Shown here one piece after another: positions 23,048 through 57,335 of a stretch of DNA of 64,000 bases. A program made the translations under genes and the position numbers. The stretch comes from a virus (taxonomy: Duplodnaviria > Caudoviricetes), in IMG/VR virus record IMGVR_UViG_3300021400_001287, positions 27,209-91,208 of that record; one strand, written 5' to 3'. The notes under the pieces are model-generated. The model did not search any database, was not told the DNA's origin, and saw only the letters and a program-made list of their open reading frames with translations. The stretch's first letter is position 1, and each line of letters opens with the position of its first letter.

Positions 23048-24184
23048 ATGGACAGGAATGCGGTATTGGCTATTTTGAATAAAGTGACTGGCGCTTCGGA
23101 TTAGGACTGGAGCGAGATCGCGGAGCTCTATCATCTCGACATGCACCCGGATACCCTGCGTAAAGCTGGTGCCGGTGTGAAGATGGTGGCTGATGCTGGA
23201 CTATTGGCTGTACCGAACACGGAAAATAAATACCGTGACGAATACATCGCGAAGAAGCAATTCTTCGACCAGCGTCGTGAGTACAACGCGGTCTTGGCCC
23301 GAGAAGCACGGGGAGATCATCTGCTGGAGTGTCTGCGTGAGTCGGCTGAGAAGCTGAATGAGCAGATGCCTTTGCTCAATAAAGGTGGAGCATCGACACA
23401 GACTTCGACGACGGAGGCTGTGTTGGTGTTGACCGACTGGCATTACGGTATGGTTGCCAACAACGTATGGAACAAATATGACACGAACATCTGCAAAGAG
23501 CGACTGGAAGAGCTTCGACAAAAGGTTGCCTATAAGCTGGCTCTCCATGATGTGACAATACTCCATGTGTTGGTGTTGGGTGACATGGCGAACGGTGCTA
23601 TCCATGTGACGAGTCGTGTCGCGGCTGAAGAGCACGTGGTAGATCAGCTGATGCAGGTCAGCGAACTTATCGCTGAGTTCGTGGATGACTTGGCCAATCG
23701 AGTACAATACACTCAAATCTATTGCACCTACGGCAATCACATGCGGACGGTCCCGAACAAGAAGGACTCTATCCACGCGGACAATATGGAACGGATTATT
23801 CCGTGGTGGCTGGCACAGCGCTTTAAGACGCGTGACGACGTCGTGGTAGCTGAGACCGGAAAAGACGAGATGCTCCGGGCTGTGGTGTGCGGCGCTGAAG
23901 TTTGCGCGGTGCATGGCGATCTGGATGGTGGCAAAGACGCGGCGCTGGCTCTGAGCCAGATGTACGAGCGGGCTTTCGGTCGGAAGATGCAGTATCTCTT
24001 CACCGGTCACTATCATTCAATGCTCGATACGGAGAACTACGGCATCACGTCGATCCGGGCGGGCGGGATGTGTGGCGTCGATGAGTACGCGAAGAACGCG
24101 CGATTGTTTTCGACACCGTCTCAGACATTGGCAATATTTGATCGTGGCGAGCTGGACGCACTGTATCATATCCGGTTGAGGTGA
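23048..24184 (+). CDS. Metallophosphoesterase/exonuclease (calcineurin-like); TAG at 23102
   Basis: Motifs DWHYG, LGD, GNH, HGD and GHYH; N-terminus MDRNAV...SD*DWSEI is in frame. Confidence 0.85.
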
Positions 24185-24188
24185 TAAC

Positions 24189-25052
24189 ATGGCAAAGAAA
24201 AGTCCTGAAAAGATGTGTCTGCGTTGCCATGAGATCAAGCCGTAGGATGAGTTCTATCACAACCGCGGTTGGGCGGAACAGCAGTACGCTGATACGGTGT
24301 GTCGCGAGTGCGCCAGATCATTGGTGCATTGCAAAGACGACGCTCGTAAATATTGCTGGGATAACAATCGCGTCTGGAATGACAAGATATGGGACGCCGC
24401 CCATAACAAAGCGATGTACATGCTGGCGAACAACAAAGAGTACCTCAGCAAAAATACATCGAAAAAGAGAAAAGACGAAATTGAGCTGGCTTATACGTCA
24501 ACTCAATTTTTTGCTGTCATGAACACCGCGCCGCTGTATCGGTTTGTGGAGAACCGAGACGATGAGTACGATCCGGACTCTGTAGCCGGTACGACCCAGG
24601 AACTCGGCACCACACGGGATGACGACGAACTGGTCTGGAGCGACGAGTGGAATGGCATGTACAAGAAGCGGGAGCTTCGGTATCTGGATGATTATTTCCA
24701 ACGGTTGCAAGATGAATTCGTCATCGACAACGTAAACCGTGAGGACTACGCCCGACGGGTGGCGAAGGCGTCACTGGAAGCCGATAATAAATACCAGAAG
24801 ATGCGGCAGGGCACTGGCACAGCGAAAGAGTGGCAGGAAGCTCAGAGCATGTTTGACATGCTGAGCAAGTCAGCGTCGTTTGCTGAGAGCCAGAGAAAAG
24901 AAGTCGCCAACACGTCGACGAACGCGTTGTCCACTATCATCATGGACATCGAACTCAACCACCACAATGAGATGCCCAAGGTGACATTTGAGAAAGACGA
25001 CATCGATCTCATACTCAGAGACTTTGGCTTTACCGGGGAGGCTATCGCGTAA
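24189..25052 (+). CDS. Zinc-finger protein, probable terminase small subunit; TAG at 24243
   Basis: 'CLRCHEIKP*DEFY...CREC': the two CxxC halves join only by readthrough; directly upstream of terL. Confidence 0.7.
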
Positions 25053-26707
25053 TGCCCCGTATCGATCAAGTTAAAGATATCAAGAATTACGCGCAGTGGT
25101 GGACTCAGATATAGTTCTGGCGGACGCACCTGGACGTGTTTATTCAGCAATACTTCAGTGTGAAGCTGAAAGACACGCAGCAAGTCATCGCGAGAGCGGT
25201 CGGTCTGGCGAGTAACAGTCGGATCGTGAAAAGCCGCGGATATGGCAAAACATGGCTGATCGCCTGGTGCGCTGTGGCGATTGCAATCTTGTATCCCGGC
25301 ACCTCGATCGGTGTCGTGTCGGCCACTGCCGCTCAAGCGACACTGGTCTTGAAAAAGATCAAGAAGTTCACGCGGCAATATTCAATCCTGGCCGGCGAGA
25401 TGGTGTCGACCGGCAAAGACTTCGTTCGTATCTCGAAGGATAAAGGTTACTGTGAGTTTTTGAACGGCTCGTCCATCGAGTCGTTTTCGATCAACCAGGT
25501 TGTTGGTGAGCGTACCAAGGTGCTGATCATTGACGAAGCGCCCAGAGCTAACGAACAGGATATCAAGAAGAACGCCGAGCCGACGCTGAACACAACGCGT
25601 GACTGTTGTATCCAAGGTGGTTACGATGACTTCAGCTCGAAGATCATCTATATTACCTCCGCCTGTTTGAAGAGTAACTTCTTCTACAGGGACTTCGTGA
25701 AAGCCTATGAAGCGATGCGGAGTGGCGACCCGACATCATTTGCGTGTGTGTTGAATTATCAGAGCGCCGTGCGATGCGGGTTGACGAAAGCCAGTTATTT
25801 TGAAGGTCGGAAGAAAGCGTTGCCGGAGAGCGTATTTGCCACGGAATATGGCAGTTACTTCCTCGGCGCTGAAGCCGGTACGCTGTTCCCGTTCGACTTG
25901 ACGGACACCGTGCGGACACTTCGCCGCGTTGAAGCGAAACAGCCGAAGAACAGCAAATGCTGGTACATCATATCTATTGACTTGGCCAGTTCCGATGCGA
26001 AGGGCGCGGACAACGCTGTGCTGGTGGTCATCAAGTGCGTGGACAAAGAAGACGGCACCGTGATGAAGAACGTGGTGTACATCCGATCGTATCACGGCTG
26101 GCGACTGAACGCGTTGGCAAATGAAGTGCGCAAAGTCTATGTTGCGTTCCCCGGAACAGTGCGTATTATCTACGACGCGAAGGGATTGGGCTTTTCGTTT
26201 GCACAATTCTTCTCCGAGCCGTGGATCGACGACGCAACCGGTAAAGAGTATGAGCCGTGGACAGACGAGCATACCGCGATCCCCGGCGCGAATCCAATAT
26301 TGTTTGCCTTCAAAGCGACGCCGGTGTTGAATGTGCAACTGGTATCTACGTTGCGCGTGGCGTTGGAGCAAAAAACAGTGGCGTTCCCGGTGCCAAGCAC
26401 GGATATCGACGACGTGATGGTGTCGGAGGAAGATGACGACGAAGGCGAGAAGATCGTCCGGCTGTCGATGGAGGAGAGTGCCATTTATCTGGAGGCCGAC
26501 GCTTTGCAAGTGGAGCTTGGATCCATCGTATCAAAGAGTACGATGGCCGGCAACGTCGTTTACGATACCGAAAAGAAAAATCAACACAAAGACAGATACT
26601 CGGCGCTGGCGATGGGCGTATGGTACATCAGCCAGGTCGAGGACGATAATAAACGCCGGTTGCGGAACCGGGGCAATGCTTGCATTGGCATTGTTGACAG
26701 CTTTTGA
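25052..26707 (+). CDS. terL: Terminase large subunit; TAG at 25112
   Basis: Walker A 'SRGYGKT', Walker B 'LIIDEA', nuclease 'SIDLA' and 'HKDRYSALAM'; ATG overlaps the upstream TAA. Confidence 0.93.
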
Positions 26708-26721
26708 TGGGAGGAAAAAGT

Positions 26722-28302
26722 ATGGCGGCATTTTGGAGACGGGGGAATAAGACGCAGCCCGTTGAGCCCCCGAAAGTCCGTCCCGCCGTATGCGTGAGCG
26801 GCGAGGAAGCCAAGGTTGATGTTGGGCTGACTTATGACAACTCCAATATCACGATGGCAGCTTGGATGCCCGGAGTGGACTACCGCGCCATTCTGATGGA
26901 CAAGCAAGCGCACATCTATGACCTGTACGCCTAGGCGGACTACTTCGTCGACGCGGATCCCATTTTTCGTGGCATCATCAAAGGTGTTTACACGCCGTTC
27001 AGTGTTTCTGAATGGCGGTTGGAGGGCACCAATGACCGGGTCAAGGAAAAATACGAAGACTATTATCTGCGCATTCACTTGCGGGATAAGATGTGGTCGA
27101 TCTTTTATCAGTACTTCAAGTATGGGCAAGTGTTCGTTTACTTGAAGGATGATGGAGATATTATTACATTGCCGCCTCATCGGTGTCGTATTGCGAACGT
27201 GATGGTGGCTGGCGAACCCATTGTGGAGTTCAATGCGTTGCAGGTGGCCATTGACCTTGGCTATCGCAAATACGATTCGCTCCAAAAATGGTTAGAGGAC
27301 GACAAATTCGAGGTGAGGATGAGAGGCTATCCCCCCGAAGTAACGACCGCCCTGAAAGATGGCAAAGAGTGGGTTCAGCTGAACCCGATGAGGACGTTCG
27401 TTTTGCAGGACATCAAAGAAGACTGGTTGCGATATGCTATACCATTGATCGCGGCGGCACTGCTTGCGCTTCAGAAAAAAGCCATGATCTCGAATTACGA
27501 GAACTCGACTTTGAATATGATGGTGCATAGCTTCCTCCACGTCCAGTACGGTGACGCGACCAAGAACGCTGATTTCCTGCCGAACCAAAACGAGCTTCAA
27601 GCTCTGAACACTCTGTTCAAAGCGGCCATGTCGAAGAATGGCACTGGCATCGCGACCACGAACGTGTTTGCGAAAGCACAGTTCATTCAGCCGGACATCA
27701 ACGACCTGTTCGACAACGACCTGTACTCCAATGTCAACAACGAGATTCTCTCGGCTGGCGGCATCAGCGGTATCATCGTGAACGGGTTGGCAGAAGACGG
27801 ATCGAGCTTCGCCAGCGCTCAAGTCTCCATGCAGACGGCGGCGTTGCGCATCAAACAAGCGCGGGACAACTTCTGTGAATTAATGAACAAGATCAACGTG
27901 CGTCTCAACGGCGGCATCCTGCCTCGGAGCAAAGACGAGAACGTGCCTACGTTCAAGTTCCCGCCGGTTGATCTGACGGGGAGCGGTAAGTTCTATGAGA
28001 CTTGCCTCAACCTGTGGAAATAGGGCGTGCTGAGTACCCGGACCATGATGGACGCTCATGGGTTCGACATGGAGCAGGAATTCAGACGGCGCACCGATGA
28101 AGACGATAGCGGCGTTACGAAAACCATGTCGCCACGTCAAGAGACGCAAAACGAGGAGAGCGACACAAACCAAAGCACCGACACCGACGTCAGCAAAAAG
28201 GTCGGTCGACCGACACTTACCAATGACGAACGGCAAAGCGATCCGGCTGATGCTTTGACTGGACGGCAACCGAAACCGAGCTCTCCGGATGGATCACTTT
28301 AA
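26722..28302 (+). CDS. Portal protein; TAGs at 26932 and 28021
   Basis: Three same-frame ORF fragments separated only by TAG; ~526 aa, located after terL; GGAGG RBS. Confidence 0.85.
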
Positions 28303-28353
28303 TCACACTGTCGGCTCCTCCTAGCCGACGGAATGATAAATGAGGTGGCAAAC

Positions 28354-29664
28354 ATGCAGAAATTTGTTATGGCCGCTTCGGACATTTCTCTGGATTATCC
28401 GCAGAGTAATGAAATTTACTTTTCTGTAACAATGCGGATGCTGACAACGGAAACCAACTAGAATGGCGTCCGTCTGACCGCTGGTTTTATCGACGATATT
28501 GCAACGCATGCGGAAGAATATGTATGTATGCCGCTGTGTGCCGACGTGGATCGGCTGGCTCGCGGCTTGGACATCGGCCTCACTCACATGTATGATGAGC
28601 AACGGCAGGTGTTCGAAGCGCCGCAGGTCGGCAGTTTTTTTGAGGTGCATAGAGAAGACGACGAGCACGGAGTTAGCTTGGTCGGCACGGCTAGAATTAA
28701 CAAGCGCAATGCCAATGTGACTGATAAGATCATCGAGATGTTCAACACCAACCGGCTCAAGTTCAGCTTTGAAATTTGGGCGAGTGAGGTGTACGAAGAG
28801 GACGGAGTGACGGTGGTTGACGCCGCGCCGGGTAACCGGTTGACGGCGATGGCTATCGTTACCACGCCGGCTCTCCCCGCTGCTGTGGCTCTGAACCTGG
28901 CGGCGGAGGTGGATATTGACGCGTTCCGTGGCAAAGTCTATGACTTGCTGTGGACGAAGTATCCGAGCGAGTGCTGGAACGTTGTCTGGATGGGTTTGGA
29001 TTACGCCGTTATTTACTTTTCTGAGCACGGCAATATGGTACGCATTGCGTATCGTATGGATGGTGACAAACTCGTCGAGACGGAGGAATACGAAGTTGGC
29101 TTCGCACGAATTGACGAGGTGAGTGACAACATGAATATTACGCTGGCAACCGCCGAGGTGACCAACGTGGAGACCCCCGATGTGAACGAGGTGTCCGCTG
29201 TTGCCGATGCGGTTATCAATACTGACACAGTGGAGACTCCCGCTGTGGAAACCGAGACTGCTGCTTGCGGCGATCCCGAAAACGCGGCTTGCGATGACAA
29301 GACGGCGGAGGTCGAAAACGACATCGATGACGACATCAAAGACGAGTCGGACGACGATGCCCATGACCTGGAAGAGATGCGTCGAGAGCTGGAGCGCGTG
29401 AACGCTGAACTGGCTCGATACAAGGCGGCTGAAGAAGCTGCGAAGATGGCGGAGAAGCGTGCCGCCGCAAAAAAGTACGCGGAGCGTGAACACCTGAATC
29501 TGGAAGCGGAAGACGTTAAAGCGGCGATCGATAACGCCGACTATGAAGCGCTTGCTGCTGCCGTGATGGCGAAGCCCGCGGACGACAAGAATGAAGAAGC
29601 CTACCGTGTTACCGCGGAGATCAAGCTGTCTCCCTATGGCAACATGTTCGAGAAGGCGAACTGA
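28354..29664 (+). CDS. Prohead protease/scaffold; TAG at 28459
   Basis: 'N*NGV', 'FSFEI', acidic coiled-coil C-terminus; GAGGTG RBS. Confidence 0.8.
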
Positions 29665-29678
29665 GGAGGATATGCAAT

Positions 29679-30116: not shown

Positions 30117-30131
30117 GGAGCGTGAAATATA

Positions 30132-31127
30132 ATGGAAACCATCACCAAGGACATGAATATTGTTAAGGCGTAGGCTGCTGACGCCCGCCACGAGTCTCTT
30201 GACTCTAACGTCCGCGAGAACATGAACAAGGTCGTTCATGAGCTGGCAGCGGATCGTAACCCCATGAACCTGTATCAGATCGGTCAGCTGATGGCCTTCA
30301 CTGTTGAAGAGCTGGAGCGCCCCATGACCAACTGGCTGGATCTCGTTGCCGATCATAAGCGCATTGGCGCTGGCGACGAAGCCGCTTTCCGCACCACCGC
30401 GAACGGCATCCGCGCCGTCATCCAGGCCAAGGCTGGCACCACTCCCCGCAGCCGCGTTGCCGACAAGCAGATTGTCGTTGACACCGTTGCCGTGTCTGTG
30501 CGTCCCGCTGTGAACCTGCTTGAGCTGGCCTCCGGTAAGATCAACTTCGGTGACCTGGCCATGTATGCCGCTGTCGAGCTGGCCAACAAGAAGACTCAGT
30601 ATGTGCAGCAGGTGCTCGACGCCGCCGCGACTTCCTTCGCCTCTCCTTTCTACGGCTCTGGCGCTGGTATCGTTGCCGCGACCTTTGATCCCATGGTGCA
30701 GCACTGGATGCGCACCGGTGGCGCTGCGATTATCGGTGACATCGCTGCCGCACAGAAGCTGGCTCCTCTGACTGGCTTCACCGCCTCCACCAACTCTCAG
30801 TGGGGCAATGGCATTATCGAGGAGTTCAATCGCACTGGCCGCATTGGCACCTACAAGGGCGCCCAGGTTGTGCAGACTGTGAACCCCTATCTGCCTGACG
30901 ACGTGACCCCTGTGCTGAATATCAGCAAGCTGTATATCGTGCCCACCACGATGAACACTGATGCCCGCAGCCTGAAGGTCGTCGAGCAGGGTGGCGTGAT
31001 CTCCGTGGAGAACACTTCCATCAACGAGCTGACCTACGAGGTCCGCATGGACGAGCACTTTGGTGCCGCCGTCGTGTACGGTGTGCAGCCCACTGTGTCC
31101 GTGTACTACGACTCTACTCTGGGTTAA
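30132..31127 (+). CDS. Major capsid protein; TAG at 30171
   Basis: RBS AAGGAG; METITKDMNIVKA*AADARHE is in frame with the 301-aa ORF; highly biased codons; followed by hairpins (~31138-31198). Confidence 0.88.
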
Positions 31128-31227
31128 TGCTAAATGTTGGTCGGCAGAGAGACCTTAAACCTCTGACCATCGGCGGGGCTCTTTACTGAGCTCCGCCTAC
31201 TATTTATGCGAAAGGTGAAGGTTTGAT

Positions 31228-31673: not shown

Positions 31674-32111
31674 ATGACAGATTAGACGACATGGATGGAC
31701 GACCTGTATCTGGATGTCCAATGGCAACGCATCCCCGTGGCGATGACGAAGATCGAAGAGATGCAACTCCTGTCTCGTTGTTTTGTACACGGCCTCGAAT
31801 CTATGTTTATCGCCACTGGCAAAGCGATGCAATTTGACGCGGACTGGCTGACGTTTTCGGACGAAGGCGTGCTTGTCTCAACGACCCAGGACTTGAAAAT
31901 AGACGAGCTCCGGTACGCGTTTTTGAAGGCGAAAATCGAATTCTTCAAGCGGGTCCAAACTGACGTGAACAACATCGTTGGCTACACCACCGACGCTTTG
32001 ACTGTGACAAACGCGGACAAACCGTATCAAAACTTATCACAGACGATCGAAGGTCTGGAGAAAGAATTGCGTCAGATTTTCTACACGATGATCCGACATG
32101 CTTATCTGTGA
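31674..32111 (+). CDS. Head-tail adaptor (probable); TAG at 31683
   Basis: MTD*TTWMDDLY...; assigned by position. Confidence 0.6.
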
Positions 32112-32121: not shown

Positions 32122-32379
32122 ATGATTGTGAAAGAAACACTTGCGACACGAAGCGGAGGCAAACAAGTCGTCATGACGCCGTTCAACGACTATTGCGATC
32201 ATCTGAGGGTGGACGTATTCAAAGCGCTTGGCGACGTCGAAGCAATGTGCGAGATGATGACTGGACAGTGTCGATGCGATTGGACAGAAAATGAAGTCGA
32301 AGCGTATAGCAAAGTGCGGTCGCGGCTTTTGAACCTGGCTGGCGCTGTGGCGCGTTAGCCCCAGAACTAGGAGGGGTGA
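32122..32379 (+). CDS. Small hypothetical protein; TAGs at 32356 and 32368
   Basis: Readthrough gives 'AVAR*PQN*EG' ending in TGA just before the next ATG. Confidence 0.6.
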
Positions 32380-32381: not shown

Positions 32382-33122
32382 ATGCAGAAACCAGCGGTCG
32401 TGCCGGCGAACTAGACGCCGAGCAATCGGACTTTTTACTAGCCGCCCACCATTCAGAGTGACTATACAAATTTGCTATGGCAAGATCATCCGCATTTCAC
32501 AGAGACGTTTGAGCTGGTCCATAGTTGGATTGAACATTTGCGTACAGATGACCCTTAGTATATTCGCGCTACGTACTTCCCTGTTGACTGGAAGAGTAAG
32601 GTCGGCAATTCCGACGCGAGCGCGAACTTCAAGACGGATTGGAACAATCTGATCTGGAAAGGGGACTATATCATCCGCGATGGCGGGGAGATATTGCTTC
32701 TTACTTGGGATGTCAAAGAGCACATGAACAACCAAGCGACACAGGCTCAGATATGCAATTTGAAGCTGACGCTGGTTCGGCATGTTCAAGCTCAAGCAGA
32801 TGAGCGCGGCTTCATGGAAGTACCGGCTCATGACGAGTATGTGCTTTATGAGCACCCGGCGACGTTCTCGCCGTACGCTGGTCGCCCGGACTACATTGCG
32901 ACGGCGAACGTGCCAGGTATCAATGCAGACGCTTTGATGAGCGGACAAATCCAGTTCAATGAAGAGACGAAGAAGATGACCATTAACGACGAGTTTGAGT
33001 ACGGCGGATTTACGTATCGACTGATCAACGTGGACTGGTCTGAAGTCAACTACGATAACACGGCTGGCATCATCAATTTCAACTGTAAACGAGTGGCAGG
33101 TGGTATGAATGCTCCAGATTGA
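32382..33122 (+). CDS. Head-closure-like protein; TAGs at 32412, 32439 and 32556
   Basis: GGAGGGG RBS + ATG 32382, in frame with ORF 32694-33122; readthrough fills an otherwise empty ~300-bp gap. Confidence 0.7.
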
Positions 33123-35074: not shown

Positions 35075-35131
35075 CCCGACAGATGGGGCTGGGTAACACC
35101 AGCCCCTTTATTTTGTAAAGGAGAGGTCACG

Positions 35132-46604: not shown

Positions 46605-49099
46605 GCACGATGCCTGAAGCGGCAAATTTTACTTTTAATAATACAACCTACGCGGTCAAAGACGCAACGGCACGTGCTGAGATACAAGATATCAACGTGG
46701 CGCTGGGCAGATCGGACGAGACGAATTATCGTCCGTTTGGTCTGTTTTACGCCAATTATACCGGCCCCAATATCCGAGCGTCAATTCGCCAAAGCGCAGA
46801 TGTCATTGCCAAATACGATGTGGCAGTGTTTGCATATGCGCCGAATCTCGAAAGCTCATGTCCAGCAGATGACATGGCCATCATTCAACTCGCGAAGACA
46901 ATCAATCCGAAGTTGCGGATTTACAGCTATATTACCGCGGCGTCTGACCATAATGGGTACACACTCAACGCGGACGGATCATGGGAGAATAGTCCGGCGC
47001 AGCAAGCCAACGTCGAGCGCATCTACAATCGACACGAACTTATCCAATACTTTCACGACCTGAAGCATGTGGGTGGCATTCGGATGGGGCAATATGACGT
47101 AGACGGCTACGAGATTATGGAGGGCGGCTTCGCTTTTGATGGCGCATTCCTGGACGAATTTGGCGCTGATGTGTCAACAGACGCAAAACACTATCAAGGC
47201 GGCAAAGACGGCAGTGGCAACTGGCGCTGGGACACGGCGGCGGATAAGTGGAATGATATCGTGGCTGAGGCCCATCGTTGTGGATGCAACTTGATAAACA
47301 ACACGTGGGAGAGCACACAAATGCTGGCAGAATGTACCGAGTTGACCAGCAATGATATGGTGTTGATCGAAACGTGTGAGTTTATGGGTGACGAAAACGT
47401 AGAAAACGACACCGACTTTTACTGGACGACATACGCAAGCGAAAAACGTATCTTCGATTTTGTTAATTCGGAATACTATGCGTTGCGCAAACCGAAAGTC
47501 GTGTCATATAGTACACTAAACGTAAATGCTTCAGCGGAATTAAAACAACGGGCTTTTACGTGGGCAGTATACAACACGTTGGCTATGGGTGGACATTACG
47601 TCTATGTATCTGGTACCGAAGGCTTGCAGATGCCGGATGAAACGAAAATGTTTAAAGTACCAGAAAACGGCGTTTACACTTACACTCACGAAGAAAAAGG
47701 ACGTTATAAGCTGACGGCGAACGGTCACACGGTGGAGACGATCCGCGAGAACACAGATGCCGTGAGTTTGGCGACGGCTGAGAATTTTGCCCGCGTTTAC
47801 ATAAAGATAGATGGCAACATCATACAAAACGCGTTTACGTCTGCTCCAGAACTGGAGTATGACTTGAGCGCTCGCATGAGCGGTGTTGAGAAAAATGTTG
47901 CCGACGCTTTGGCAAACACCAAGAAAAACGCGAGCGAATATGTCCGCTTGCAGATTGATGACTGGACAACAACTGTGACGCCGTCGGATTTTGAGAATTT
48001 GCTTCCACGGCAATTCAACACGGTGAGCGCCATCAATATGACTGTTACGGGTGAAGCAACCTACGACGTGACAGCAACAGTTGCCAATGGGTGGGGTTGG
48101 GCAAACCATTCGTTTAGCGCTGAAACGTTGGCTCCGTTCCTAGGTAAGACGCTGGAATTCGGTTGTTCTTCGATTACGACGACTGGTTTCAGTGACTTTG
48201 GCAACGCCGAAACAACGGGTGCTGTGTTGATGTTCGTCTAGGTTGACAATACGAAGTATTGCATACAGAAGAACACGAACAATGCGTCTGCGACGGGGAA
48301 TGTCAGCGGTATCAACATTCAAGTGACGATACCGGCGAATGCAGCGTCGATGACGGTGGGGTGGCAATGTTACGGTGTTACGGACGGCGTGAGTTTTGCC
48401 GTGTATGACCTATATCTCGCCGACATTCATAGTGTTGATGAGGCTTCAGCGAAAAAGTTTTTCACGAACGTGTTTCCGATCAACGCGAATAATGCGAGTG
48501 CCGTCAATCCGGTGCTGACGTCACGAACAGACGCACTTGGACACCGCGTGTTTGATGTCAACGGTAACGTGACGTTAGACTGGGGCGTGTGGCGACAAGA
48601 CTTCACGGGGACGGCATTGGAGCCGTTCAAAGGGCACACGCTGGAGCTGGGTTGTGCAAACTACAAGATATATAACTCGGACACGACGGTGTATACGGGG
48701 TCGGATTTGCCGTTGATCCTTGGCGCGGCATGGAACACGACCAATAAACTATTCCCCACGACAAACAACGCTTCGCGTGTGGGCAACACGACTGGTTTGT
48801 GCATTCAATATACCGTGCCGACCGATGCGGAGCAATTCAGCGTGGGTTGGCAGGGCGGTGCCAGTATCAATGGATTGACATTCGAAGTTGAAGGGCTGTA
48901 CCTCTATGACCTGGACGAAGACAACGTCATCATTCGCGGTAGAGACTTAGCGAACTCATGGCTGAGAATATGTCGAGTGACCGAAGCCATGCTGGTGGCA
49001 GATCCGACGTTGCTGGGGAATTGCCTCTATATTACCGATGCTGGCAATATGTTCATTACTGACTATAGTGGCACTCGGACAAACATCATTACCCATTAA
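46601..49099 (+). CDS. Tail-associated glycoside-hydrolase-like protein with C-terminal carbohydrate-binding-like repeats; TAG at 48239
   Basis: 'AKTINPKLRIYSYI...FDGAFLDEFG...LINNTW...VLIE' resembles a TIM-barrel GH; 'KTLEFGC/HTLELGC...VGWQ' segment occurs twice. Confidence 0.6.
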
Positions 49100-49112
49100 A
49101 GGAGGGCTCGAT

Positions 49113-49286
49113 ATGCCGTATGTAAAGACAATTTGGGCAACGGGCGACTTGATCACGGCCGAAGGCATGAACAACGTGGAAGACGGTGTGGCTGATGCCG
49201 TAGAAAGCGCAGAGACCGCGCTGGACCGCGTGGAGAATATACAGATGACCATTAACGCCGATATGGAACTGGTGGTGACAATCTGA
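49113..49286 (+). CDS. Small tail protein
   Basis: 'MPYVKTIWATGDLITAEGMNNVEDGV'; GGAGG RBS. Confidence 0.7.
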   Translation: MPYVKTIWATGDLITAEGMNNVEDGVADAVESAETALDRVENIQMTINADMELVVTI

Positions 49287-51508
49287 TGATTGCATTGGAG
49301 CAGGTGACACGGACAGCACCAAATGGGCTTACCGCCCAGATGTTGAAGGTGTCTGGGGCGACAGAAGGCGAAGGTATCCGGTTGACGTCGTAGGCTTACC
49401 CAGAAGATAAACGGATGGTTTTTTCGGTGTGGTGGGAGAGTGAGACGGCGACAACCGCAGAAGTAACGGTGTTGGGCAAAACAGACACAGCAACGGTGAC
49501 GACCGAATGGTCCCGTTATTACCTCTCCAATGACAACCCCAGCGGACTATACGTCACAATCATGCCTGGATCGTCAGCAACTATTTATCTGTACATGGCG
49601 CAGCTGGAGCTAGGCGATCGACCGAGCGACTGGCGCGTTGCTCCCGAAGACACAGATGCAGACATTAATAATGTGCAAAGCACGTTGTCTGCGTCGATCG
49701 ATGTGGTGTCGGGGCAAGTGACTGAGCAAGCGACGGCTATCAACAACTTGACCGGACGCGTCAGCACGGCGGAGGAAAAGATAACACCAGAAGCTATCGT
49801 GAACACGGTGCGGACCAGTACGGCCTATCAAGCTGATTTGGATACACTTTCTGACGCGGCGACTGCTGCTCAGTCGACTGCCGATGACGCGGCTGCTGCT
49901 GCTGCTGCGAACGGCCAACGTATTACCGAACAGCAAACACAAATTACCCAGAACGCCACGGCTATTACGCAAAAAGCGGATCAGATAGCCGTTGATAGCT
50001 TGGGCACCAGAGTGACGAACGCCGAGGCTGAGCTGACGACACAAGCGACGCAAATTGCAGCCAAGGTATCTCAGACAGATTTCAATTCACTCGAAGATCG
50101 TGTTGAGGTTGCCGAGACAGTGATCAAAGAAACTCCGGGCGGTGTAGAAGTTATCGTGAGCGGTACGACCAAACTGAAGGGCGTGACCACGACCAATGAG
50201 ACAACTGTTGAAATAACGGACAGTGAGTTTAATGTGTCGACCGAGACGATCAATTTTGCTGCCGGAGATGGCGAAACATTTAAACTCGACAATGATGGTG
50301 GCAGCATGCAACATTTGACCGTGCATGACAAGCTATTTGCACCCAATATGGCAGAAAAATACATGGGCCCCACAACGATCACTGTTGGTGCGGGTGGCAC
50401 ATATAATAGTTTACAAGCTGTCTTTGACACACTGAACAACAAAGTACTCGTCGATGAAATAGAGATATCGCTTCGTAGCGACTGTTATGAGTACGCAACA
50501 TTATGTGGTGTCTTTGGCAGTGGTACGATCCATATCACTGGCAATTACACAATTAACGGTGGACTCACGATCAATAGCTGTGGTGTGCGTATCATGTTGA
50601 GCCCAGATATAGCTTGCCCGACTGGCAGCATATCTCCGGCACTCATGATAACGTATTGCCAAAGCGTTACAGCGTCTGCTGTCACAATGCGTGGCAACGG
50701 CAGCGGTATACTTGTCTCGGTCACCGCGTCGAAATTAGCTCTGTACGGGTGTGAATTCTACAATGCGGACTATGCTATTTACGCGCAAGAGAATACGGAC
50801 TTGTGTTGCGTCGATTTGGCCGGTGACATCAACACCGCATCGTTAATGTGTTCGTTGAGCTCCATTATTTGGAGCGGCACTCGTCCCAGTGCTGGTGTTT
50901 ATGAAGTGGAGCCGTGTCTGTATAAGTGCAATGGATCCGATCCGAATGACATTGAAACCTGTCCGTCGGATAGTGGATCCGGTGGCACACAACCGTCACC
51001 GCCGTCGCAAGTGTATGAAGCATCGCTCTCCGCGACACTGACTGGATCCAACTATGGCACGTCTAGCTGGATGAGTGAACAGAGCATGCGTCAAGGTGTC
51101 TATGGTACGACGCAGTACGCCGGATGCATGTGGTTTAATACATCTACTATTTCGGGGAAAACCATCAAGAGCGCTATCTTGACACTGAAGCGTGTGTCTG
51201 GTACGGGTGGATCATCGGCGGTGAATGTGAACTTGTACACGATCACACTGACTGGAAAGAGCGGGAACCCGAAGACCAATGCGACCAGTTACGGATCCCT
51301 TGGTACCATCTCTAACGGTGAAATCCAAGACTTTTCGACCAGTGGACTTTTGTCCGCTGTACAAGCGCTGGCGGATGGCACGGCGAAGGGACTCATGATA
51401 TATGCAAATGACCCAAATCCTACCGGCAATAGACAATACAGTGCTAACTATTCTAAGTTCGATGGAACAGATGGCGTGGTTCCTGTATTAACTGTGAGTT
51501 ATCAATAA
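49286..51508 (+). CDS. Minor tail/fibre protein; TAG at 49391
   Basis: 'QLELGDRPSDWRVAPED', a coiled coil and a beta-helix-like region; ATG overlaps the upstream TGA. Confidence 0.75.
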
Positions 51509-51522
51509 GAGGGTGAATTGAG

Positions 51523-52077
51523 TTGCGAGAAGTAGCTTTCTACGGAAGACGGGCTATTCCAAACGTCTTTCAAATTGGCGTTGAAATGGACAACGGGGTC
51601 GAACAGATCCAGTTCGTTTTGCCGGCTATTATTCCGAATCAAGTTGCCACATTGTATTTGCAAAATGGCGACTATGCCGATGCCGTCATTCTGACGAACG
51701 GACTTTGGGAAGTGACGCACACAACGACTCAGCATGGCGGCGCATACGACTGTTATGTAACGCTGACGGACGGAGACACTTTGCTCTGGCATAGCGAAGA
51801 CTTCACGGCGACGGTGTACGACTTGCCAAATGTTGAAGGGCAAATTGAGCAAGAGTATCCGACCGCTGTCCAGCAAGCGATGAATGCCGCCGCGCAAGCT
51901 ATTGTTGCGAATGACAATGTGCAAGTCGCGAAGACAGAGACGCTGGCTGCAAGAGATGACGCGGTGACTGCTGCGAATGAAGCGAAGGAGATGCAAGAGC
52001 AGATCACACAGATCGAGTTTGCTATCACTAATGACATGGACCTGACCGTTAATGTTGGATGGGAGGTAAGCCCGTAA
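51523..52077 (+). CDS. BppU-like upper baseplate protein
   Basis: 'IGVEMDNGVEQIQFVLP...LWEVT...LWHSEDF'. Confidence 0.55.
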   Translation: MREVAFYGRRAIPNVFQIGVEMDNGVEQIQFVLPAIIPNQVATLYLQNGDYADAVILTNGLWEVTHTTTQHGGAYDCYVTLTDGDTLLWHSEDFTATVYDLPNVEGQIEQEYPTAVQQAMNAAAQAIVANDNVQVAKTETLAARDDAVTAANEAKEMQEQITQIEFAITNDMDLTVNVGWEVSP

Positions 52078-52316
52078 TGGAAAAGAGAGATATTCCGACC
52101 GGACGCTTTATGACACAGACTTTGGATGAGATCGACTATGTCCAGGATGGTGTCGTGTATCATGGTGTCTACACAAGCAATGTTTAGGTTGGCGACGCGA
52201 ATGAGCTGGAGCTGCTGACCGGATATGTACCGGGGACAATTGCACACACCGCGGGATGGAAGAAGATGTGGGAACTCGACACCGACGGGGAGACATGGGT
52301 CCCCATTTAGGAGTGA
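52077..52316 (+). CDS. Small tail-associated protein; TAGs at 52185 and 52308
   Basis: Absent from the ORF track; 'SNV*VGD...PGTIAHTAGWKKMWELDTDG..WVPI*E'. Confidence 0.7.
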
Positions 52317-52322
52317 TGACGA

Positions 52323-52478
52323 ATGACCGCAGAAACGATTTACGCGATGCTGGCAGGGAAACTAACTCCTATGCTGAAAGATCTGACGACTGAAGCGTTA
52401 CAGCAAGACTTGGCCGATGTCGTGTCCGGTATCACGTTTACGATCAATAACGATATGGAACTGGAGGTCGAAATATAA
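52323..52478 (+). CDS. 51-aa tail-associated protein
   Basis: Coupled by TAATG to the next gene; ends ITFTINNDMELEVEI. Confidence 0.65.
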   Translation: MTAETIYAMLAGKLTPMLKDLTTEALQQDLADVVSGITFTINNDMELEVEI

Positions 52479-54559
52479 TGGCGACTGTGAATTTGGGACG
52501 AGTCGGTTTTGTGCCGAAGGGAGAATACGTTGCGGCGACAGCGTATGAAAAGTATGACATTGTGAGCTACAATGGCAGCAATTACGTGGCGTAGGTCGCG
52601 GTGACCGGCGTGACGCCGGGAACGGATGCCACCAAGTGGAAGCTCTTCATTGATAATTCGGCTGCTGCGGCGGCGACGACCGCCGCGAACACTGCTGCGA
52701 ATGCGGCTAATACGGCGGCTACCAATGCAACGAATGCGACCGGGTATATTGCCGATCCGTATGACGCTACGAAGACCTACGCCGTTGGCGACTACGTTAT
52801 CTACAATGGCAAACTGTATCGGTGCAATACTACCATTTCTACGGCTGAAGCGTGGACGGCGATGCACTGGACGGAGACGCAGGTGGGGGATGACGTTGGA
52901 GAGTTAAAGAGCGCTTTTTTAAATAAAGAACCTATTAACTGGTTTGATAAAACGACAGCAATTAATGGTAAAAATTTTAATTATTACGGTGATTTAAGTA
53001 CAAATGGTATAATGTTTGCCGCATATGTTCCAGTTTCAGCCGGCAAATATACTTTTCAAGTGTCGTACATAGATTTAGGCGGAAACGCAACAAGAATCCA
53101 CTTGTATGATGCGAACAAAGGATATCTATCTTCGGTTAATGGAACAGTGATAGGAGGATCGACTAATTACCCCATTATTACAATCGAAATCGCTAATGAA
53201 AGTGCAAAATTTATAGGAATAAGTTATCGCCTGAATGAAATAAATAATTTTATGGTTGTCAAAGGCGAAACGTATCCTGAAATATATTCCGAATATTTTG
53301 ATCCATTTTCGGAACTACACAATGTTACTGTGCGCCCGGAGGATGTTATCGGTTTAACTGATACATGTAAAATTGTAAACAATTTGCATGAAACTGTAAA
53401 TGATATTCTTGTATCATATTTGAACATTTTTAATCGAGCAAATATAAACACTCCCGGTTATTTGAATGGTGGAAACATTGTTGGCACATCAGGTGTTACA
53501 TATGATTACATTGAAATAACTCACTATGGTGAATATATTTCTAATTGCGTTGCAAAAACATTATATGGAAATGCGTATAATAACTGCGTTGCATTTTATA
53601 ATGCTGAAAAAACATATCTTCGTAATGCGGCAATAACAATAATCTCAGATAATGGGAATAATTCTGTCGGTACATTTAAAATTGAAAATGATGTAAAATA
53701 TATAAGAGTTACCATTTATTCTACAAACGTTGCTAATACGGCAATGATTGTATTTGGTACAACATTGCCTGATTACTATATTGATAATGGAGAAACAAAC
53801 GTTTCTACTGTTGACTTCATCGAATCAATTAAAGGGAATGTTCTTTTTGGCAAAACCGCTATTTTTGATGGTGATTCCATATGTGCGAGCAGTACGGACG
53901 TTAGTGGCAATGGAGCTTATGCGGGTAGAATTTCAGTTGCAAACGCCATGATTATCCATAACTATGCTGTTGGCGGTGGAACAATCACCAGTGAAACCTA
54001 TTCCGGATCTACTCCTAAACATTGGATAGTTGATAGCATTGATAGTGTATATAATGCTCACCCGGATGCTGATTATATTATACTTGAGGGTGGAACGAAT
54101 GATGCCGATGTTATCGGAAGCATCATTAATGGGAATACACCTGAACGGTTTGGCAGTTATAGCATGACCGATTTTTCTGGTGATTATGATGACGAAACGT
54201 TCTGCGGTGCAGTTGAATTGCTGATTTACAAGGCAATCAATTATTGGCCATCTAAGAAAATCGGTTTTGTTATTGCCATGAAAATGGGAAAAACGAGCAA
54301 CGGATATACGCCGGAAACTAACAACCGGAGGGCGTACTTTGAAACCATCATGGATATCTGCGATAAATGGGGTATCCCGTACCTGAATCTCTGGGATAAC
54401 TGTTACATGAATCCGAGCCTTGATGTGTGCTATGACAGCACGATGAGACCTCAAGAGAACGTTGCAGCTAATAAAATGTATCAAGATGGTCAGCATCCTG
54501 CCCCGAGGGGCTATGACTATATCGCACCGATAATCGGTGAGTGGATGAAAACGCTGTAA
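52478..54559 (+). CDS. Receptor-binding/tail fibre protein with a C-terminal SGNH hydrolase; TAG at 52592
   Basis: N-terminal 'NLGRV...YDIVSYNGSNYVA*' and CBM5/12-like 'YAVGDYVIYNGKLYRC'; SGNH blocks GDSI, GG, GGTND and DGQHP. Confidence 0.85.
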
Positions 54560-54755
54560 TGTAAAGGACACTTTAACTCTCTATCCCACCCATTGATAGG
54601 TGCAACAGCGGGAGAGAACTTGCTTCTCTCCCGTGATACTATTTTGACATTTAACAGACCGTTGCGAACGGTGCAAAAATGTTAATGACTTCTTGATAGT
54701 GTCGATGCTACATCTCCGTTTACAATAATGGCAACTACATACGGAGGTGTTTTCA

Positions 54756-55742
54756 ATGAGTATTGCGGCGAAGAGCACATTCATCAAGAACCTCTCCCAG
54801 AAGTTGGGCGACACGTTGACTGTCAATGAAATGTCCGCGTTGACTTCTGCATTGGCAGAAGAACTCAGTCAATTCGAGATGGAGCATAATTGCAATGACA
54901 AGCCGGACGTTGAAACTGGTGAATTGCTGGACGAGTTTCTGGCAGCGAAAGAAGTTGAAGGTAAGTCGCCGAAAACAATTGCTCACTACAAGTACATTCT
55001 GACCCGTATGTTCAAAGATATCGACCTTCCGATCCGCGATATCATGATATTCAGTCTGCGTCGATATCTTGCAAAACTCAAACAGCAAGGTATGCAGGAT
55101 GTCACAGTCGAAGGGATCCGTTCTATTATCTGCTCGTTCTTTGGGTGGGTGCATCGCGAGAATCTGATCGACATTAACCCTGCTGGGAATCTTGGGCCTA
55201 TCCGTTGCGAGAAAAAAGTTAAGAAGCCCCTGAGTAGTGTCGACATCGAGACGCTGAAAGAAAACTGTACGACAATTCGCGATAGAGCAATAGTGAGTTT
55301 GCTCCTGTCGACTGGATGCCGCATCAGTGAGATATGCGGGCTCAATCGGGACAGCATTGACTTCGCCAATTTGGAATGTGTCGTACTTGGGAAGGGAAAC
55401 AAGCAACGCACTGTGTTCATTGACGAAGTGACGGCGATGTTGGTGAAGCGATATTTGTTCTCGAGAGAAGATCAGTATGAAGCGCTATTCGTTGGCAAAG
55501 GTAGTAGCCGGCTCACTCCGGGCGGCATCCGGTTGATGCTCAACAAAGTAGCCAATGTTGCCGGTGTAGATCATGTTCATCCGCATCGCTTCCGGAGGAC
55601 ATTGGCAACGAATTTGGTCGACCACGGCATGCCGATCCAGGAAGTGGCAAACATTTTAGGGCACGACAAATTGGAGACGACCATGAAATATGTGTACGTG
55701 AACAAGACGAATGTTAAGAACGATTATCGAAAATATGCATAG
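54756..55742 (+). CDS. Tyrosine recombinase (XerD-like) next to the tail fibre
   Basis: 'TGCRISE', 'GKGNKQR', 'HPHRFRRT', 'LGH', 'TMKY'; ends at a TAG, with a TAA six codons later. Confidence 0.92.
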   Translation: MSIAAKSTFIKNLSQKLGDTLTVNEMSALTSALAEELSQFEMEHNCNDKPDVETGELLDEFLAAKEVEGKSPKTIAHYKYILTRMFKDIDLPIRDIMIFSLRRYLAKLKQQGMQDVTVEGIRSIICSFFGWVHRENLIDINPAGNLGPIRCEKKVKKPLSSVDIETLKENCTTIRDRAIVSLLLSTGCRISEICGLNRDSIDFANLECVVLGKGNKQRTVFIDEVTAMLVKRYLFSREDQYEALFVGKGSSRLTPGGIRLMLNKVANVAGVDHVHPHRFRRTLATNLVDHGMPIQEVANILGHDKLETTMKYVYVNKTNVKNDYRKYA

Positions 55743-55749
55743 GAGGATA

Positions 55750-56769
55750 ATGATGGATAAGATATTTACCTCCATTGACTATTGCGTCTGGCTGGAAGAC
55801 CAAGTTGCGGCCAAACGGCCGTATTGGTATGGTACGACTTTTCAGCCGTGTACGCAAGCGTAGTTGGACCGTAAGGCCAGACAGTATCCAGACCATTATA
55901 CCGCTAACAGAATGTATCGTTACGAAGCTGATATTCGGAACGAACAAATTTGCGGCGACTGTGTGGGCGGTGCTATCAAAGGTGCCGCGTGGACTGACCT
56001 AGGGCAGCACAAAGTCGTCTACGCGTCGAATGGTGTGCCAGATCGAAGTGCTGATGGTATGTTCAAGTATTGCAAATCCATTGGGGCTGAGTACGGCAAC
56101 ATTTCGACTATACCGGATCGACCAGGCATTGCTGTCAGAATGGCCGGGCACGTAGGTGTCTATGTTGGCAATGGCTACGTGGTTGAATGGCGGGGCTTTA
56201 AGTACGGTTGCGTAAAAACATAGCTCGAAGGTCGCGGGTGGACAGACTGGTATGAGTTGCCATGGGTCAATTATGGCGAAGCAGAGATCGAGCCCAACAA
56301 CGATGTGAAAGCAATTCTTGGCCGTCGACTACTGAAGGTGGGGCGCAAAGGTGACGATGTTGCTCTGCTTCAAGAGCTGCTCAATGAGCAAGGATTCGAT
56401 GCTGGTATCGTCGATGGGGAGTACGGTAAAAATACTCGCGACGCGGTGAGACGTCTCCAAGAAGCCGCTGGTATTGACGTAGATGGGCAATTCGGCGAAG
56501 AGAGCTTGAAGGCGCTGATGTCGTTGCTGGCAGAAAAGAATGTGGAAGACAATGTGACAACGGACGAAGAGAAACGGGTCGTCATCGTAACGGCGAGCCA
56601 TGCTGCGAATATCCGTGCCGGTGCGGGGACGAATTACCCCATTCTGACTGTGGCAAAATGTGGAACAAAGTTGCCATACGTTGCTGTAGCGGACAACGGC
56701 TGGTTTGCTGTTCAACTTGACGGGCAAATCGGCTGGATCAGCAATAAAATGGCGGAGCTGGGGGAATGA
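55750..56769 (+). CDS. Endolysin (NlpC/P60-like catalytic domain, PG-binding domain, SH3b); TAGs at 55861 and 56221
   Basis: 'PYWYG...DCVG...GHVGVYVGNG', 'GDDVALLQELL...DGEYGKNT', 'NIRAGAGTNY...GWIS'. Confidence 0.9.
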
Positions 56770-56772
56770 CGT

Positions 56773-57084
56773 ATGACGTAGTATCAATGGCTGTGTTTAT
56801 TCGGGATCCCAACGTTGCTGACCGCGTAGGTCAGCTACTTGATCAAACGCGTAAGAGATACAGCCAAAGAGACGAACGCAATTGCTGCTGGCGTTCAAGC
56901 ATTGCTACGGGCTCAGTTGCGAAAAGAATATGAAAGATGCTATAAGCAAGGATACGCGACGCTGAATGATCGTGACGACTTTGAAAACTGTTGGACGCAG
57001 TACCATGCGCTTGGCGCAAATGGTGTCATGGACGATGTTCGCAAAAAGTTTTTTGACTTACCGATAGGGGGCGAAGAACAATGA
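56773..57084 (+). CDS. Lysis-cassette membrane protein; TAGs at 56779 and 56827
   Basis: MT*YQWLCLFGIPTLLTA*VSYLIKR...GVQALLR...YHALGANGVMD. Confidence 0.8.
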
Positions 57085-57335
57085 TCAATTGGAAAGTACG
57101 TTTGCGGAATAAGCAGTTCTGGGTTTCTCTGATCCCAGCCATGCTGTTGCTCATCCAGTCGGTGGCATGGTTGTTTGGATATCAGCTGGATCTTGGTGAG
57201 CTGGGTAACCGACTGTAGACCGTCGTAGATGCTTTGTTCGCTGTGCTGGTGATCCTCGGCATTGTGGTCGACCCAACGACCGAAGGTGTGGGCGACTCTC
57301 AGAGAGCGCTGACCTACGAAAACCCGTCAAGATAA
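57081..57335 (+). CDS. Holin, phiLC3 family; TAG at 57216
   Basis: Absent from the ORF track; MINWKVRLRNKQFW...LGNRL*TVVDALFAVLVILGIVVDPTTEGVGDS. Confidence 0.92.

Follow-up and report, generated by a model that had tools for sequence, protein, structure and literature searches.

Why would a phage keep in-frame stop codons close to the starts of its virion and lysis genes? The window analysed here, a stretch of 64,000 nucleotides, comes from a phage of an uncultured SPbeta-like siphovirus lineage whose late genes contain in-frame TAG codons. The preliminary description had read these TAGs as an amber gate that stays shut until a suppressor tRNA accumulates. We found no close relative of this phage among GenBank phages or in IMG/VR; the comparisons below cover six related recoded genomes and, for alignment, the standard-code syntenic relatives L007 and L008.

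The phage has one suppressor tRNA, with anticodon CUA, encoded on the plus strand at 22949-23028 (77 nt plus an encoded CCA). It shows A73, a 3-bp D-stem and an 8-nt variable loop, and its D-loop, AGAATTGGCATAT, is common to a paralogous short tRNA-Leu(CAA) that the phage also carries. As in the classical suppressors (supP/leuX, supF and the T4-type tRNA sets), the anticodon differs by a single base, in a tRNA whose synthetase, leucyl-tRNA synthetase, ignores the anticodon. Laboratory suppressors, however, rescue mutations, whereas in this phage the suppressor is needed by essential genes in their wild-type form. The tRNA gene begins 6 nt 3′ of g22229 and ends 19 nt 5′ of the first late gene, and every recoded relative has tRNA-CUA at this same syntenic place, 19 nt 5′ of its first late gene. 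At the syntenic place in the standard-code relatives we found tRNA arrays without tRNA-CUA. We did not find a plus-strand terminator between the tRNA and the ATG at 23048, so that late transcription should also yield the tRNA.

Gene starts were picked by the SD motif and the opening of the frame, and the late genes that follow all lie on the plus strand. Directly after the tRNA come a metallophosphoesterase/exonuclease-like gene (23048-24184) and a YonG-like gene (24189-25052), each with a TAG at codon 19 (23102 and 24243), and then the terminase large subunit gene terL (25052-26707, 551 aa), whose sole TAG is codon 21 (25112). The portal gene (26722-28302) has TAGs at codons 71 (26932) and 434 (28021), a head-module gene (28354-29664) at codon 36 (28459), the major capsid gene of the YonB family (30132-31127) a sole TAG at codon 14 (30171), and a head-tail gene (31674-32111) at codon 4 (31683). 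A small gene of 85 aa (32122-32379) has its TAGs at codons 79 and 83 (32356 and 32368); both align with Leu in relatives, and the codon-83 TAG overlaps with the SD of the YomX-like gene that follows (32382-33122; codons 11, 20 and 59 at 32412, 32439 and 32556). The tail tube gene of the YomU family (34235-35074) carries codons 18 and 127 (34286 and 34613), while the 2130-aa tape measure gene (36400-42792) has its only TAGs at codons 7 and 16 (36418 and 36445).

Further downstream, TAG is codon 36 (49391) of tail fibre 1 (49286-51508), whose start lies directly against the stop of a small ORF 5′ of it; codons 37 and 78 (52185 and 52308) of a 79-aa gene (52077-52316); codon 39 (52592) of tail fibre 2 (52478-54559, with CBM5/12 and GDSL esterase domains); codons 37 and 157 (55861 and 56221) of the endolysin (55753-56769, with PG-binding and SH3 domains); codons 3 and 19 (56779 and 56827) of the lysis-cassette gene g56773 (56773-57084); and codon 46 (57216) of the 84-aa holin (57081-57335). 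The first-TAG positions listed beforehand, from codon 19 after the tRNA to codon 46 of the holin, together with codon 15 of an HNH gene, were all recovered from SD-supported starts, the one difference being the endolysin, where 38 had been given and the count depends on whether ATG 55753 or 55750 is used. The exceptions already named hold as well: Tal, or minor tail protein (43950-46604), has internal TAGs at codons 257, 365 and 727 (44718, 45042 and 46128), the large tail gene g46601 (46601-49099) has one at codon 547 (48239), and Dit and several small genes have none. In all, nine of the 31 late genes lack TAG, including Dit and a scaffold-like gene.

A prosaic explanation would be that the true starts lie 3′ of the TAGs, and that the early TAGs stand in leaders that are open by read-through. 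Indeed, this occurs for the tyrosine integrase (57733-58893, minus strand), which is itself free of internal TAG: extending its ORF to ATG 58932 brings in a TAG at codon 5, but this lies 5′ of the homologous region and was left uncounted as part of a probable false N-terminal extension. The codon-5 TAG of the antirepressor, where the profile match begins after the TAG, was left uncounted for the same reason, and the match of the phrog_9653 gene likewise begins after its TAG, probably through the same artefact; Borges et al. met the same thing for integrases (bioRxiv 10.1101/2021.08.26.457843). Elsewhere, the residues 5′ of the TAG align in 19 families with the standard-code L007 and L008, mostly with Leu at the TAG column; in TerL, for example, WWTQI[TAG]FWR faces WWTQILFWR. 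PHROG profiles span the early TAGs of g56773 (phrog_4105, residues 1-101), tail fibre 2 (codon 39 within the phrog_20680-matched region), GIY-YIG, exonuclease, Erf and HNH, and the motif L-[TAG]-G-[KR]-L..D recurs at the tape measure N-terminus in four recoded genomes. The starts 5′ of the TAGs have SD motifs before them, and 3′ of the TAGs we found no start led by an SD motif. In the databases, the gene calls for the TerL proteins closest to this one all lack part of the N-terminus, whereas standard-code TerL genes at a greater distance are called in full. Misplaced starts are thus a very improbable general explanation. The same alignments bear on the meaning of the codon: standard-code relatives have Leu in 53 of 108 cells at TAG columns and Gln in 1, indicating that TAG is read as Leu, not Gln, by the phage tRNA.

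The integrase, antirepressor and early genes were said to be free of internal TAG, and this is true of the integrase, the antirepressor and small early genes, but not of four recombination/nuclease genes of the replication arm, namely RuvC-like (its placement is doubtful), GIY-YIG, exonuclease and Erf, which have one early TAG each. The HNH endonuclease gene beside the integrase (58910-59536, minus strand) also has one, at codon 15 (59492-59494), which the profile match covers. The adjacent or co-oriented genes for DnaE (1215 aa), SSB, primase-helicase, NrdD, ThyX and ligase are TAG-free. A sigma-factor-like gene 5′ of tRNA-CUA (21759-22187, plus strand; matched by PHROG 5767 only, and weakly) has TAG at codon 32 (21852-21854).

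The 31 late genes hold 32 in-frame TAGs against 840 Leu codons. When we moved the TAGs among Leu positions, with the count per gene held fixed, 5.8±1.9 were expected in codons 2-40, where 18 of the 32 are found, and the first TAG lies at or before codon 40 in 15 of the 22 TAG-bearing genes against 5.3 expected; none of 50,000 shuffles reached 18 early TAGs or 15 such genes. Using a pool of TTG and TTA only, a pool of all codons, or leaving out the recombinase did not change the result. TAG positions therefore differ strongly from random Leu positions, the opposite of what would have refuted the preliminary description, and TAG does not behave here as a neutral sense codon; its clustering means that selection on it depends on position. 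There is no sharp rule, since the density declines gradually, from 14-29% of Leu sites in codons 1-20 to 1% beyond codon 160. Sixteen late genes have no early TAG, 12 have one and three have two, a binomial-looking distribution rather than "exactly one". No clear bias was seen in the +4 context of the TAGs.

One could also imagine that TAG, read by a scarce tRNA, is decoded slowly within the first 30-50 codons, which would space ribosomes and tune elongation or co-translational folding. TAG is the rarest Leu-decoding codon, and the span of enrichment, about 40 codons, resembles the length of the rare-codon ramp that Tuller et al. reportedly described in 2010. However, while TAG is enriched 10.8-fold at gene starts, other rare codons stand at 0.93-fold and TTA plus CTA are depleted to 0.40-fold, with the same GC content early and late in genes. 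A single slow codon makes no ramp, and many highly expressed genes, the scaffold-like gene among them, have no TAG. We regard a translational ramp as improbable.

The 5′ clustering is real and extends beyond this window. Each of the six recoded relatives shows the early bias (p between 1e-4 and 2.5e-3), and across 19 gene families 38 of 74 distinct TAG columns fall at or before codon 40, against 15.2±3.0 expected. The sites often move between genomes: in TerL they are found at codons 4, 21, 27, 31, 77, 80, 113 and 206. In the tape measure genes, which are 1227-2274 codons long, every TAG lies within the first ~16, and the tube genes have one within codons 3-18 in 6/7 genomes. The capsid TAG occupies the same column, codon 14, in 7/7 recoded genomes and the sigma-like TAG is present in 6/6 recoded relatives, both being Leu in standard-code relatives, so that even the gene with the highest expression keeps its early TAG. 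Pairwise retention of TAGs is 0.37-0.43, about as high as a neutral codon would show at the same divergence if it had one synonymous exit only (TAG to TTG), and conservation of sites is thus no proof of selection for TAG.

The explanation that we favour, with a probability of about one half, is that TAG is a conditional Leu codon in a feed-forward gate shaped by position-dependent selection. The tRNA-Leu-derived suppressor would compete with host release factor 1 at each TAG, so that TAG-bearing genes would give full-length product only when tRNA-CUA is abundant. The tRNA gene heads a 34-kb late operon, and from this order we infer that transcription into the late genes also makes the tRNA; in such a coherent feed-forward arrangement, a rise in transcription would bring a steeper rise in output. 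Leak transcripts, whether weak or internal, would largely yield no full-length protein, and a lag would follow induction until tRNA-CUA has matured. Selection would keep TAGs within about the first 40 codons, where a ribosome that loses to release factor 1 stops after a short peptide with little translation wasted. No long fragments of capsid, portal, tape measure or lysis proteins would be made, and, with the bulk of the cistron left untranslated, the early stop may have polar or destabilising effects. The same device could act on the recombination and nuclease genes amid their TAG-free neighbours. In favour of such a gate are the 5′ clustering, its recurrence in relatives, the position of the tRNA, the lasting capsid TAG, the gene-specific placement of TAG in the replication arm, the lack of TAG in lysogeny and replication genes and the precedents cited below. 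Against it stand the late TAGs of Tal, g46601 and portal, the nine late genes without TAG, the binomial-looking counts and the +4 context without clear bias. If co-transcribed with its targets, the tRNA would be no independent key and could only sharpen or delay the response; it could also be expressed constitutively, which would count against gating. The amber-gate interpretation is thus partly supported, through the non-random TAGs, their reading as Leu, the single tRNA and the TAG-free integrase, antirepressor and small early genes; that gating is the selected function is plausible but unproven.

A serious rival, which we consider possible rather than probable, is that TAGs are merely tolerated where abortion is cheap and serve no regulatory purpose. 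A copy of the phage tRNA-Leu(CAA) would have mutated to CUA, and near-harmless TTG to TAG changes would have drifted in. With incomplete suppression, or suppression that is perhaps better near the start, a late TAG would bring waste and possibly dominant-negative fragments and be purged, while an early one, costing a small loss of yield, would persist. Once essential genes contain TAG, the tRNA would be locked in neutrally, and dependence on it would be real. In five genomes compared, TAG:TTG is ~0.8 up to codon 60 and ~0.09 after it, a contrast that would follow if TAGs were neutral near gene starts and harmful further in; the early value is the one that a mutational equilibrium without benefit would give, and speaks against the gate. 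The gradual fall in density, the neutral-like retention, the turnover of sites, the binomial counts and the many late genes without TAG also fit tolerance. However, a loss of yield should hit capsid and tube most, and these are the genes in which TAG is so regularly kept. If suppression were efficient enough for that, it is less easy to see why late TAGs have been so strongly purged from genes for enzymes and low-copy proteins, unless suppression is poor during some phase. Also against tolerance are the restriction of TAG in the replication arm to recombination/nuclease genes and the constant place of tRNA-CUA, which heads the late operon in every relative.

Stop-codon recoding with phage suppressor tRNAs is known from gut phages and prophages (Borges et al. 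2021/2022, bioRxiv 10.1101/2021.08.26.457843; Peters et al. 2022, PMC9523058), and the gating idea itself is already published by Borges et al., who suggested that recoding acts as a lytic/lysogenic switch and restrains late and lytic genes after transcription. Those phages also have in-frame TAG in structural and lysis genes, a phage tRNA-CUA and a TAG-free integrase. In them, however, TAG is Gln (code 15) and is widespread within genes, with no gene-start bias described in the Borges et al. preprint, whereas here TAG-bearing genes have only 1-3 TAGs, and these are about 11-fold over-represented among the first 40 codons. What appears to be new is the bias to gene starts, together with its association with TAG read as Leu.

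The analogy drawn earlier with bldA of Streptomyces is apt, since streptomycete TTA codons are likewise biased to gene starts according to Chater & Chandra, as cited in PMC4255298. Both systems have one dedicated Leu tRNA, tRNA-Leu(UAA) in bldA, whose codon is limited in Streptomyces to a subset of non-vegetative genes. Loss of bldA lowers the level of, or destabilises, UUA-containing polycistronic mRNA (PMC2000904). TTA is, however, a sense codon at which absence of the tRNA leads to stalling, whereas TAG leads to release-factor-mediated termination, and bldA tRNA is chromosomal and developmentally regulated while the suppressor here is phage-borne. Another likeness is the synthetic feed-forward "leak dampener" of Ho et al. 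(2020, NAR, PMC7969014), in which one inducible signal in E. coli drives both the Leu amber suppressor supP (leuX, CAA to CUA) and targets with silent Leu to TAG changes, in one construct right after the start codon, and thereby removes leak. This phage resembles it in its Leu amber suppressor, its early Leu-TAGs and a tRNA beside its targets; the dampener was, however, engineered with a ribozyme-processed tRNA, whereas here co-transcription is read only from gene order. The phage adjoins a tRNA-Thr, as does the Topaz prophage of Borges et al.

The viral contig that contains the window is 91 kb long, and its plus strand from ~21.7 to 57.3 kb forms one long late region. This opens with a sigma-like gene, which matches PHROG 5767 alone and finds no support in PDB, Pfam or NCBIfam, and an unknown gene, followed by a tRNA with anticodon CUA (22949-23028, plus strand), a metallophosphoesterase-like gene, a YonG-like gene and the terminase large subunit (TerL), portal and capsid (YonB family) genes. 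Head-tail genes, the tube (YomU family) and a tape measure of 2130 aa occupy the middle, then come Dit, Tal and two fibres, and a tyrosine recombinase, endolysin and holin close the region. Beyond it, on the minus strand, lie the integrase (57733-58893), an HNH gene and a tRNA-Thr. By the Pfam names attached to its relatives, the late region is an SPbeta-like virion module. The top match among GenBank phages has only 28% identity, searches of IMG/VR with TerL and with the tRNA pattern found no relatives, and no att repeats were found at the prophage ends.

The preliminary description had listed codon positions at which TAG first occurs in these genes and had taken them as concentrated at 5′ ends. 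With starts picked from the frame opening and the SD motif, all of the listed positions reproduce, the sole difference being the endolysin (37 vs 38), which depends on the choice between two adjacent ATGs. The late genes contain 32 in-frame TAGs and 840 Leu codons. When the TAG count of each gene was kept fixed and TAGs were shuffled among Leu positions 50,000 times, 5.8±1.9 TAGs were expected at or before codon 40 and 18 were observed, while 15 genes had their first TAG within that limit vs 5.3 expected. None of the 50,000 shuffles attained either value, so that TAG placement is not random with respect to Leu positions, and the outcome was unchanged with a TTG/TTA-only pool, with an all-codon pool or with the recombinase left out. 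The TAG share of Leu-decoding sites falls from 14-29% in codons 1-20 to 13% in codons 21-40, 5% in codons 41-80 and ~1% beyond codon 160. TAG is the most 5′-enriched of all codons (10.8x in codons 2-40, p<2e-5). Neither a ramp of rare codons nor AT-rich gene starts account for the pattern, since the other rare codons stand at 0.93x, TTG is flat (1.14x), TTA and CTA together are depleted (0.40x) and GC content is equal in early and late portions. The nucleotide following TAG gave no clear signal, being a purine in 53 of 78 cases.

Reading through TAG stretches ORFs upstream, which is the main trap for any claim about early TAGs. We compared the phage with six recoded relatives and two syntenic relatives that use the standard code (L007 and L008). 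In 19 gene families the residues upstream of the TAGs align with standard-code proteins; in TerL, for example, WWTQI[TAG]FWRTHLD lies against WWTQILFWRSHLD. Tape-measure N-termini share the pattern L-[TAG]-G-[KR]-L..D in four recoded genomes, and PHROG profiles span the early TAGs in a lysis-cassette gene (g56773, 56773-57084, plus strand), fibre 2, GIY-YIG, exonuclease, Erf and HNH. Alignment with the standard-code relatives thus rules out an artefact of start calling in the late genes. Such an artefact does hold for the integrase and the antirepressor and probably for phrog_9653 and RuvC, and these four were left out of the statistics. Among TerL homologues in public data, the closest (68-98% identity) are all called N-terminally truncated, while those of ~56% identity are full length.

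The 19 families contain 74 TAG columns, at which the standard-code relatives carry residues, mostly Leu. The 108 standard-code cells comprise 53 Leu, 13 Ile, 8 Tyr, 5 each of Val, Met and Asp, and a single Gln; none is Lys. The tRNA-CUA has A73, a 3-bp D-stem and the D-loop AGAATTGGCATAT, which recurs in a short tRNA-Leu(CAA) of the phage's own tRNA cluster. Because Leu so outnumbers Gln in these cells and the D-loop is common to a tRNA-Leu, TAG encodes Leu and not the Gln of genetic code 15. Pyrrolysine decoding, suggested by the ARAGORN label "tRNA-Pyl", is contradicted by the absence of Lys from the 108 cells and by the tRNA architecture, in which the D-loop has the normal GG, the T-loop reads TTCGAAT and the variable loop is 8 nt long; the label stems from the anticodon alone. 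A D-arm pattern scan of genome contigs for the Leu ancestry of this tRNA returned nearly all random, non-tRNA matches.

The tRNA-CUA was found in all six recoded relatives, at the same site just upstream of the metallophosphoesterase-like gene, and in neither of the two standard-code relatives, which have tRNA arrays without it at that site. Arrays of up to 11 tRNAs stand where the phage has the suppressor alone (in the relatives L003:6002-7793, L006:5354-7588, L007:7267-7857 and L008:6891-7835). Since arrays of relatives occupy the suppressor site, the suppressor seems to have arisen inside a tRNA array that already preceded the late genes. The phage's own cluster, which lies upstream of the window on the same contig (L011), also holds tRNA-Leu(TAA), Met and Gln tRNAs beside the short tRNA-Leu(CAA), a tRNA that ARAGORN reads with a four-base anticodon 'caaa' in an 8-nt loop (18379-18452, minus strand) and one called 'tRNA-Tyr' with ATA by ARAGORN (18114-18189, minus strand).

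The bias recurs in each recoded relative, where the mean relative TAG position is 0.12-0.31 vs ~0.48 expected (p 1e-4 to 2.5e-3). Counting each alignment column once, which removes shared ancestry, leaves 38 of 74 distinct TAG columns at or before codon 40 vs 15.2±3.0 expected (p<1e-4). The sites themselves often differ among genomes: TerL has TAG at codons 4, 21, 27, 31, 77, 80, 113 and 206, and the portal gene at codons 9, 15, 46, 67/71, 95, 177, 354 and 434. Other sites are constant, such as codon 14/15 of the capsid gene (7/7 genomes) and codon 32 of the sigma-like gene (6/6).

We dropped the conservation of TAG as proof of purifying selection. Fourfold sites are near saturation between the compared genomes, with a third-base identity of 0.32-0.43, and retention of ordinary Leu codons roughly equals their frequency. 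TAG is retained in 37-43% of pairs, 8-fold above its frequency. The sole synonymous exit from TAG is TTG, and a rough rate estimate puts neutral retention at ~0.4-0.55, so that the observed retention is no evidence. In a five-genome alignment the TAG:TTG ratio is ~0.8 in the first 60 codons and ~0.09 beyond them, which fits a codon that is neutral early and deleterious late as well as one that is favoured early. The main rival to a regulatory gate, that TAG is tolerated only where abortion of translation is cheap, draws on this ambiguity, and we regard it as possible at odds clearly below even. The firm result is that the fitness effect of a TAG varies with its place in the gene, from which it follows that ribosomes must often terminate at TAG in some phase. 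The claim that this is not neutral recoding stands in that TAG position is strongly biased (38/74 columns, 0/50,000 shuffles); the gate drawn from it is graded lower. Until now, the debate on whether stop-codon recoding in phages is a regulatory device or neutral code drift has relied mostly on the set of genes that hold the recoded codon. A strong positional bias within genes, found again in the relatives, is another kind of evidence. It shows that ending translation at TAG continues to affect fitness, and TAG is therefore a conditional codon, not a fully reassigned one.

An amber gate, in which full-length late proteins appear only once the suppressor is abundant and which keeps the prophage silent, is plausible, with a probability of about 0.5. 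The tRNA ends 19 nt before the ATG at 23048, in late-gene orientation and with no terminator in between, and because of this gene order the tRNA and the late genes would form a coherent feed-forward loop. Sigma-70-like matches were no better than in shuffled sequence, and no promoter was assigned. Strong plus-strand hairpins, GC-rich and with T tails, occur only after the capsid (31172-31197), tube (35085-35106), fibre 2 (54608-54634) and holin (57345-57366) genes and are likely attenuators or terminators subdividing the late operon; the one after the holin is bidirectional.

No internal TAG is found in the integrase, the antirepressor, the small early genes or the replication enzymes, except that five nuclease or recombination genes among the early and replication genes carry it. 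In the replication arm TAG is present only in a RuvC-like gene (where its placement is doubtful), GIY-YIG, exonuclease and Erf, and their co-oriented, partly abutting neighbours (DnaE, SSB, primase-helicase, NrdD, ThyX, RNA ligase/PNK, a methyltransferase and a sigma-70/ECF-like gene) are TAG-free. NrdD is itself in two ORFs (330 and 439 aa; L011:2708-5756, minus strand) around a GIY-YIG homing endonuclease with one TAG at codon 35, a layout reminiscent of an intron that carries a recoded homing gene.

Four points lean towards the gate, none of which is proof. One is the feed-forward gene order at the tRNA, a design also found in the synthetic leak dampener. Early TAGs persist in the most abundant proteins, capsid and tube, so late-phase suppression must be adequate; the strong purge of late TAGs would then be easier to explain with an added phase of poor suppression. 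The confinement of TAG to recombination and nuclease genes beside TAG-free neighbours would also favour a gate, as would, by analogy, the bias to gene starts shared with bldA/TTA. In streptomycetes TTA is biased to gene starts, and only the lineage in which TTA has a regulatory role shows this bias (PMC4255298). As with TTA, TAG here is limited to a subset of genes and enriched at their starts. A fuller version of the gate would be a natural translational AND-gate or timer. In it a tRNA-Leu would have been turned into an amber suppressor and positioned to lead the late operon, and late, lysis and recombination genes would keep one to three TAG=Leu codons within about their first 40 codons, so that complete proteins form only after the tRNA accumulates and failed read-through aborts cleanly. 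We would give this version slightly less than an even chance. If true, it would be the stop-codon counterpart of bldA/TTA, and the first positional signature of phage stop-codon recoding as regulatory and not a neutral code change.

Borges et al. (bioRxiv 10.1101/2021.08.26.457843) described TAG-recoded prophages with TAG-free integrases and suggested that recoding restrains late and lysis genes and acts as a lysogeny switch. The present phage resembles theirs in having TAG in conserved genes at sense-codon columns, a tRNA-CUA and a TAG-free integrase, but TAG is Gln in theirs and Leu here. No positional bias of recoded stops is reported in that work or in the other literature retrieved, our coverage of which is incomplete. 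In the synthetic supP "leak dampener" silent Leu→TAG changes are used, with ambers right after the start codon in one construct (PMC7969014). By its gene order the phage would share the feed-forward design of that circuit; an AND-gate would be its natural version, and the parallel may serve synthetic biology. With one tRNA and about 40 TAGs, the lineage offers a simple, lightly recoded test system for the gate hypothesis. For annotation, gene callers using code 11 cut the N-terminus of these genes, and those using code 15 would put Gln where Leu belongs.

Several further features were observed in the window. The second tyrosine recombinase (54756-55760, plus strand), flanked by the tail fibres and the lysis genes, ends in a TAG (55740) within the endolysin SD and may be the only late-region gene to use TAG as its stop; suppression would append five residues. 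Two small ORFs (…TINADMELVVTI and …TINNDMELEVEI) end in copies of a 41-nt repeat (49248-49288 and 52440-52480, 73% identical). Their stops adjoin the ATG codons at which fibre 1 and fibre 2 respectively start, so that a small-ORF-plus-fibre module occurs twice in parallel. Between the leftward and rightward arms, positions 10800-11800 are AT-rich (36% GC) and dense in repeats and palindromes of the type CTTTAGTATGCTAAAG, and probably serve as operator or immunity sequences, or else as an origin. The leftward arm also encodes a pentapeptide-repeat protein with a DUF5758 C-terminal domain (672-1451, minus strand).
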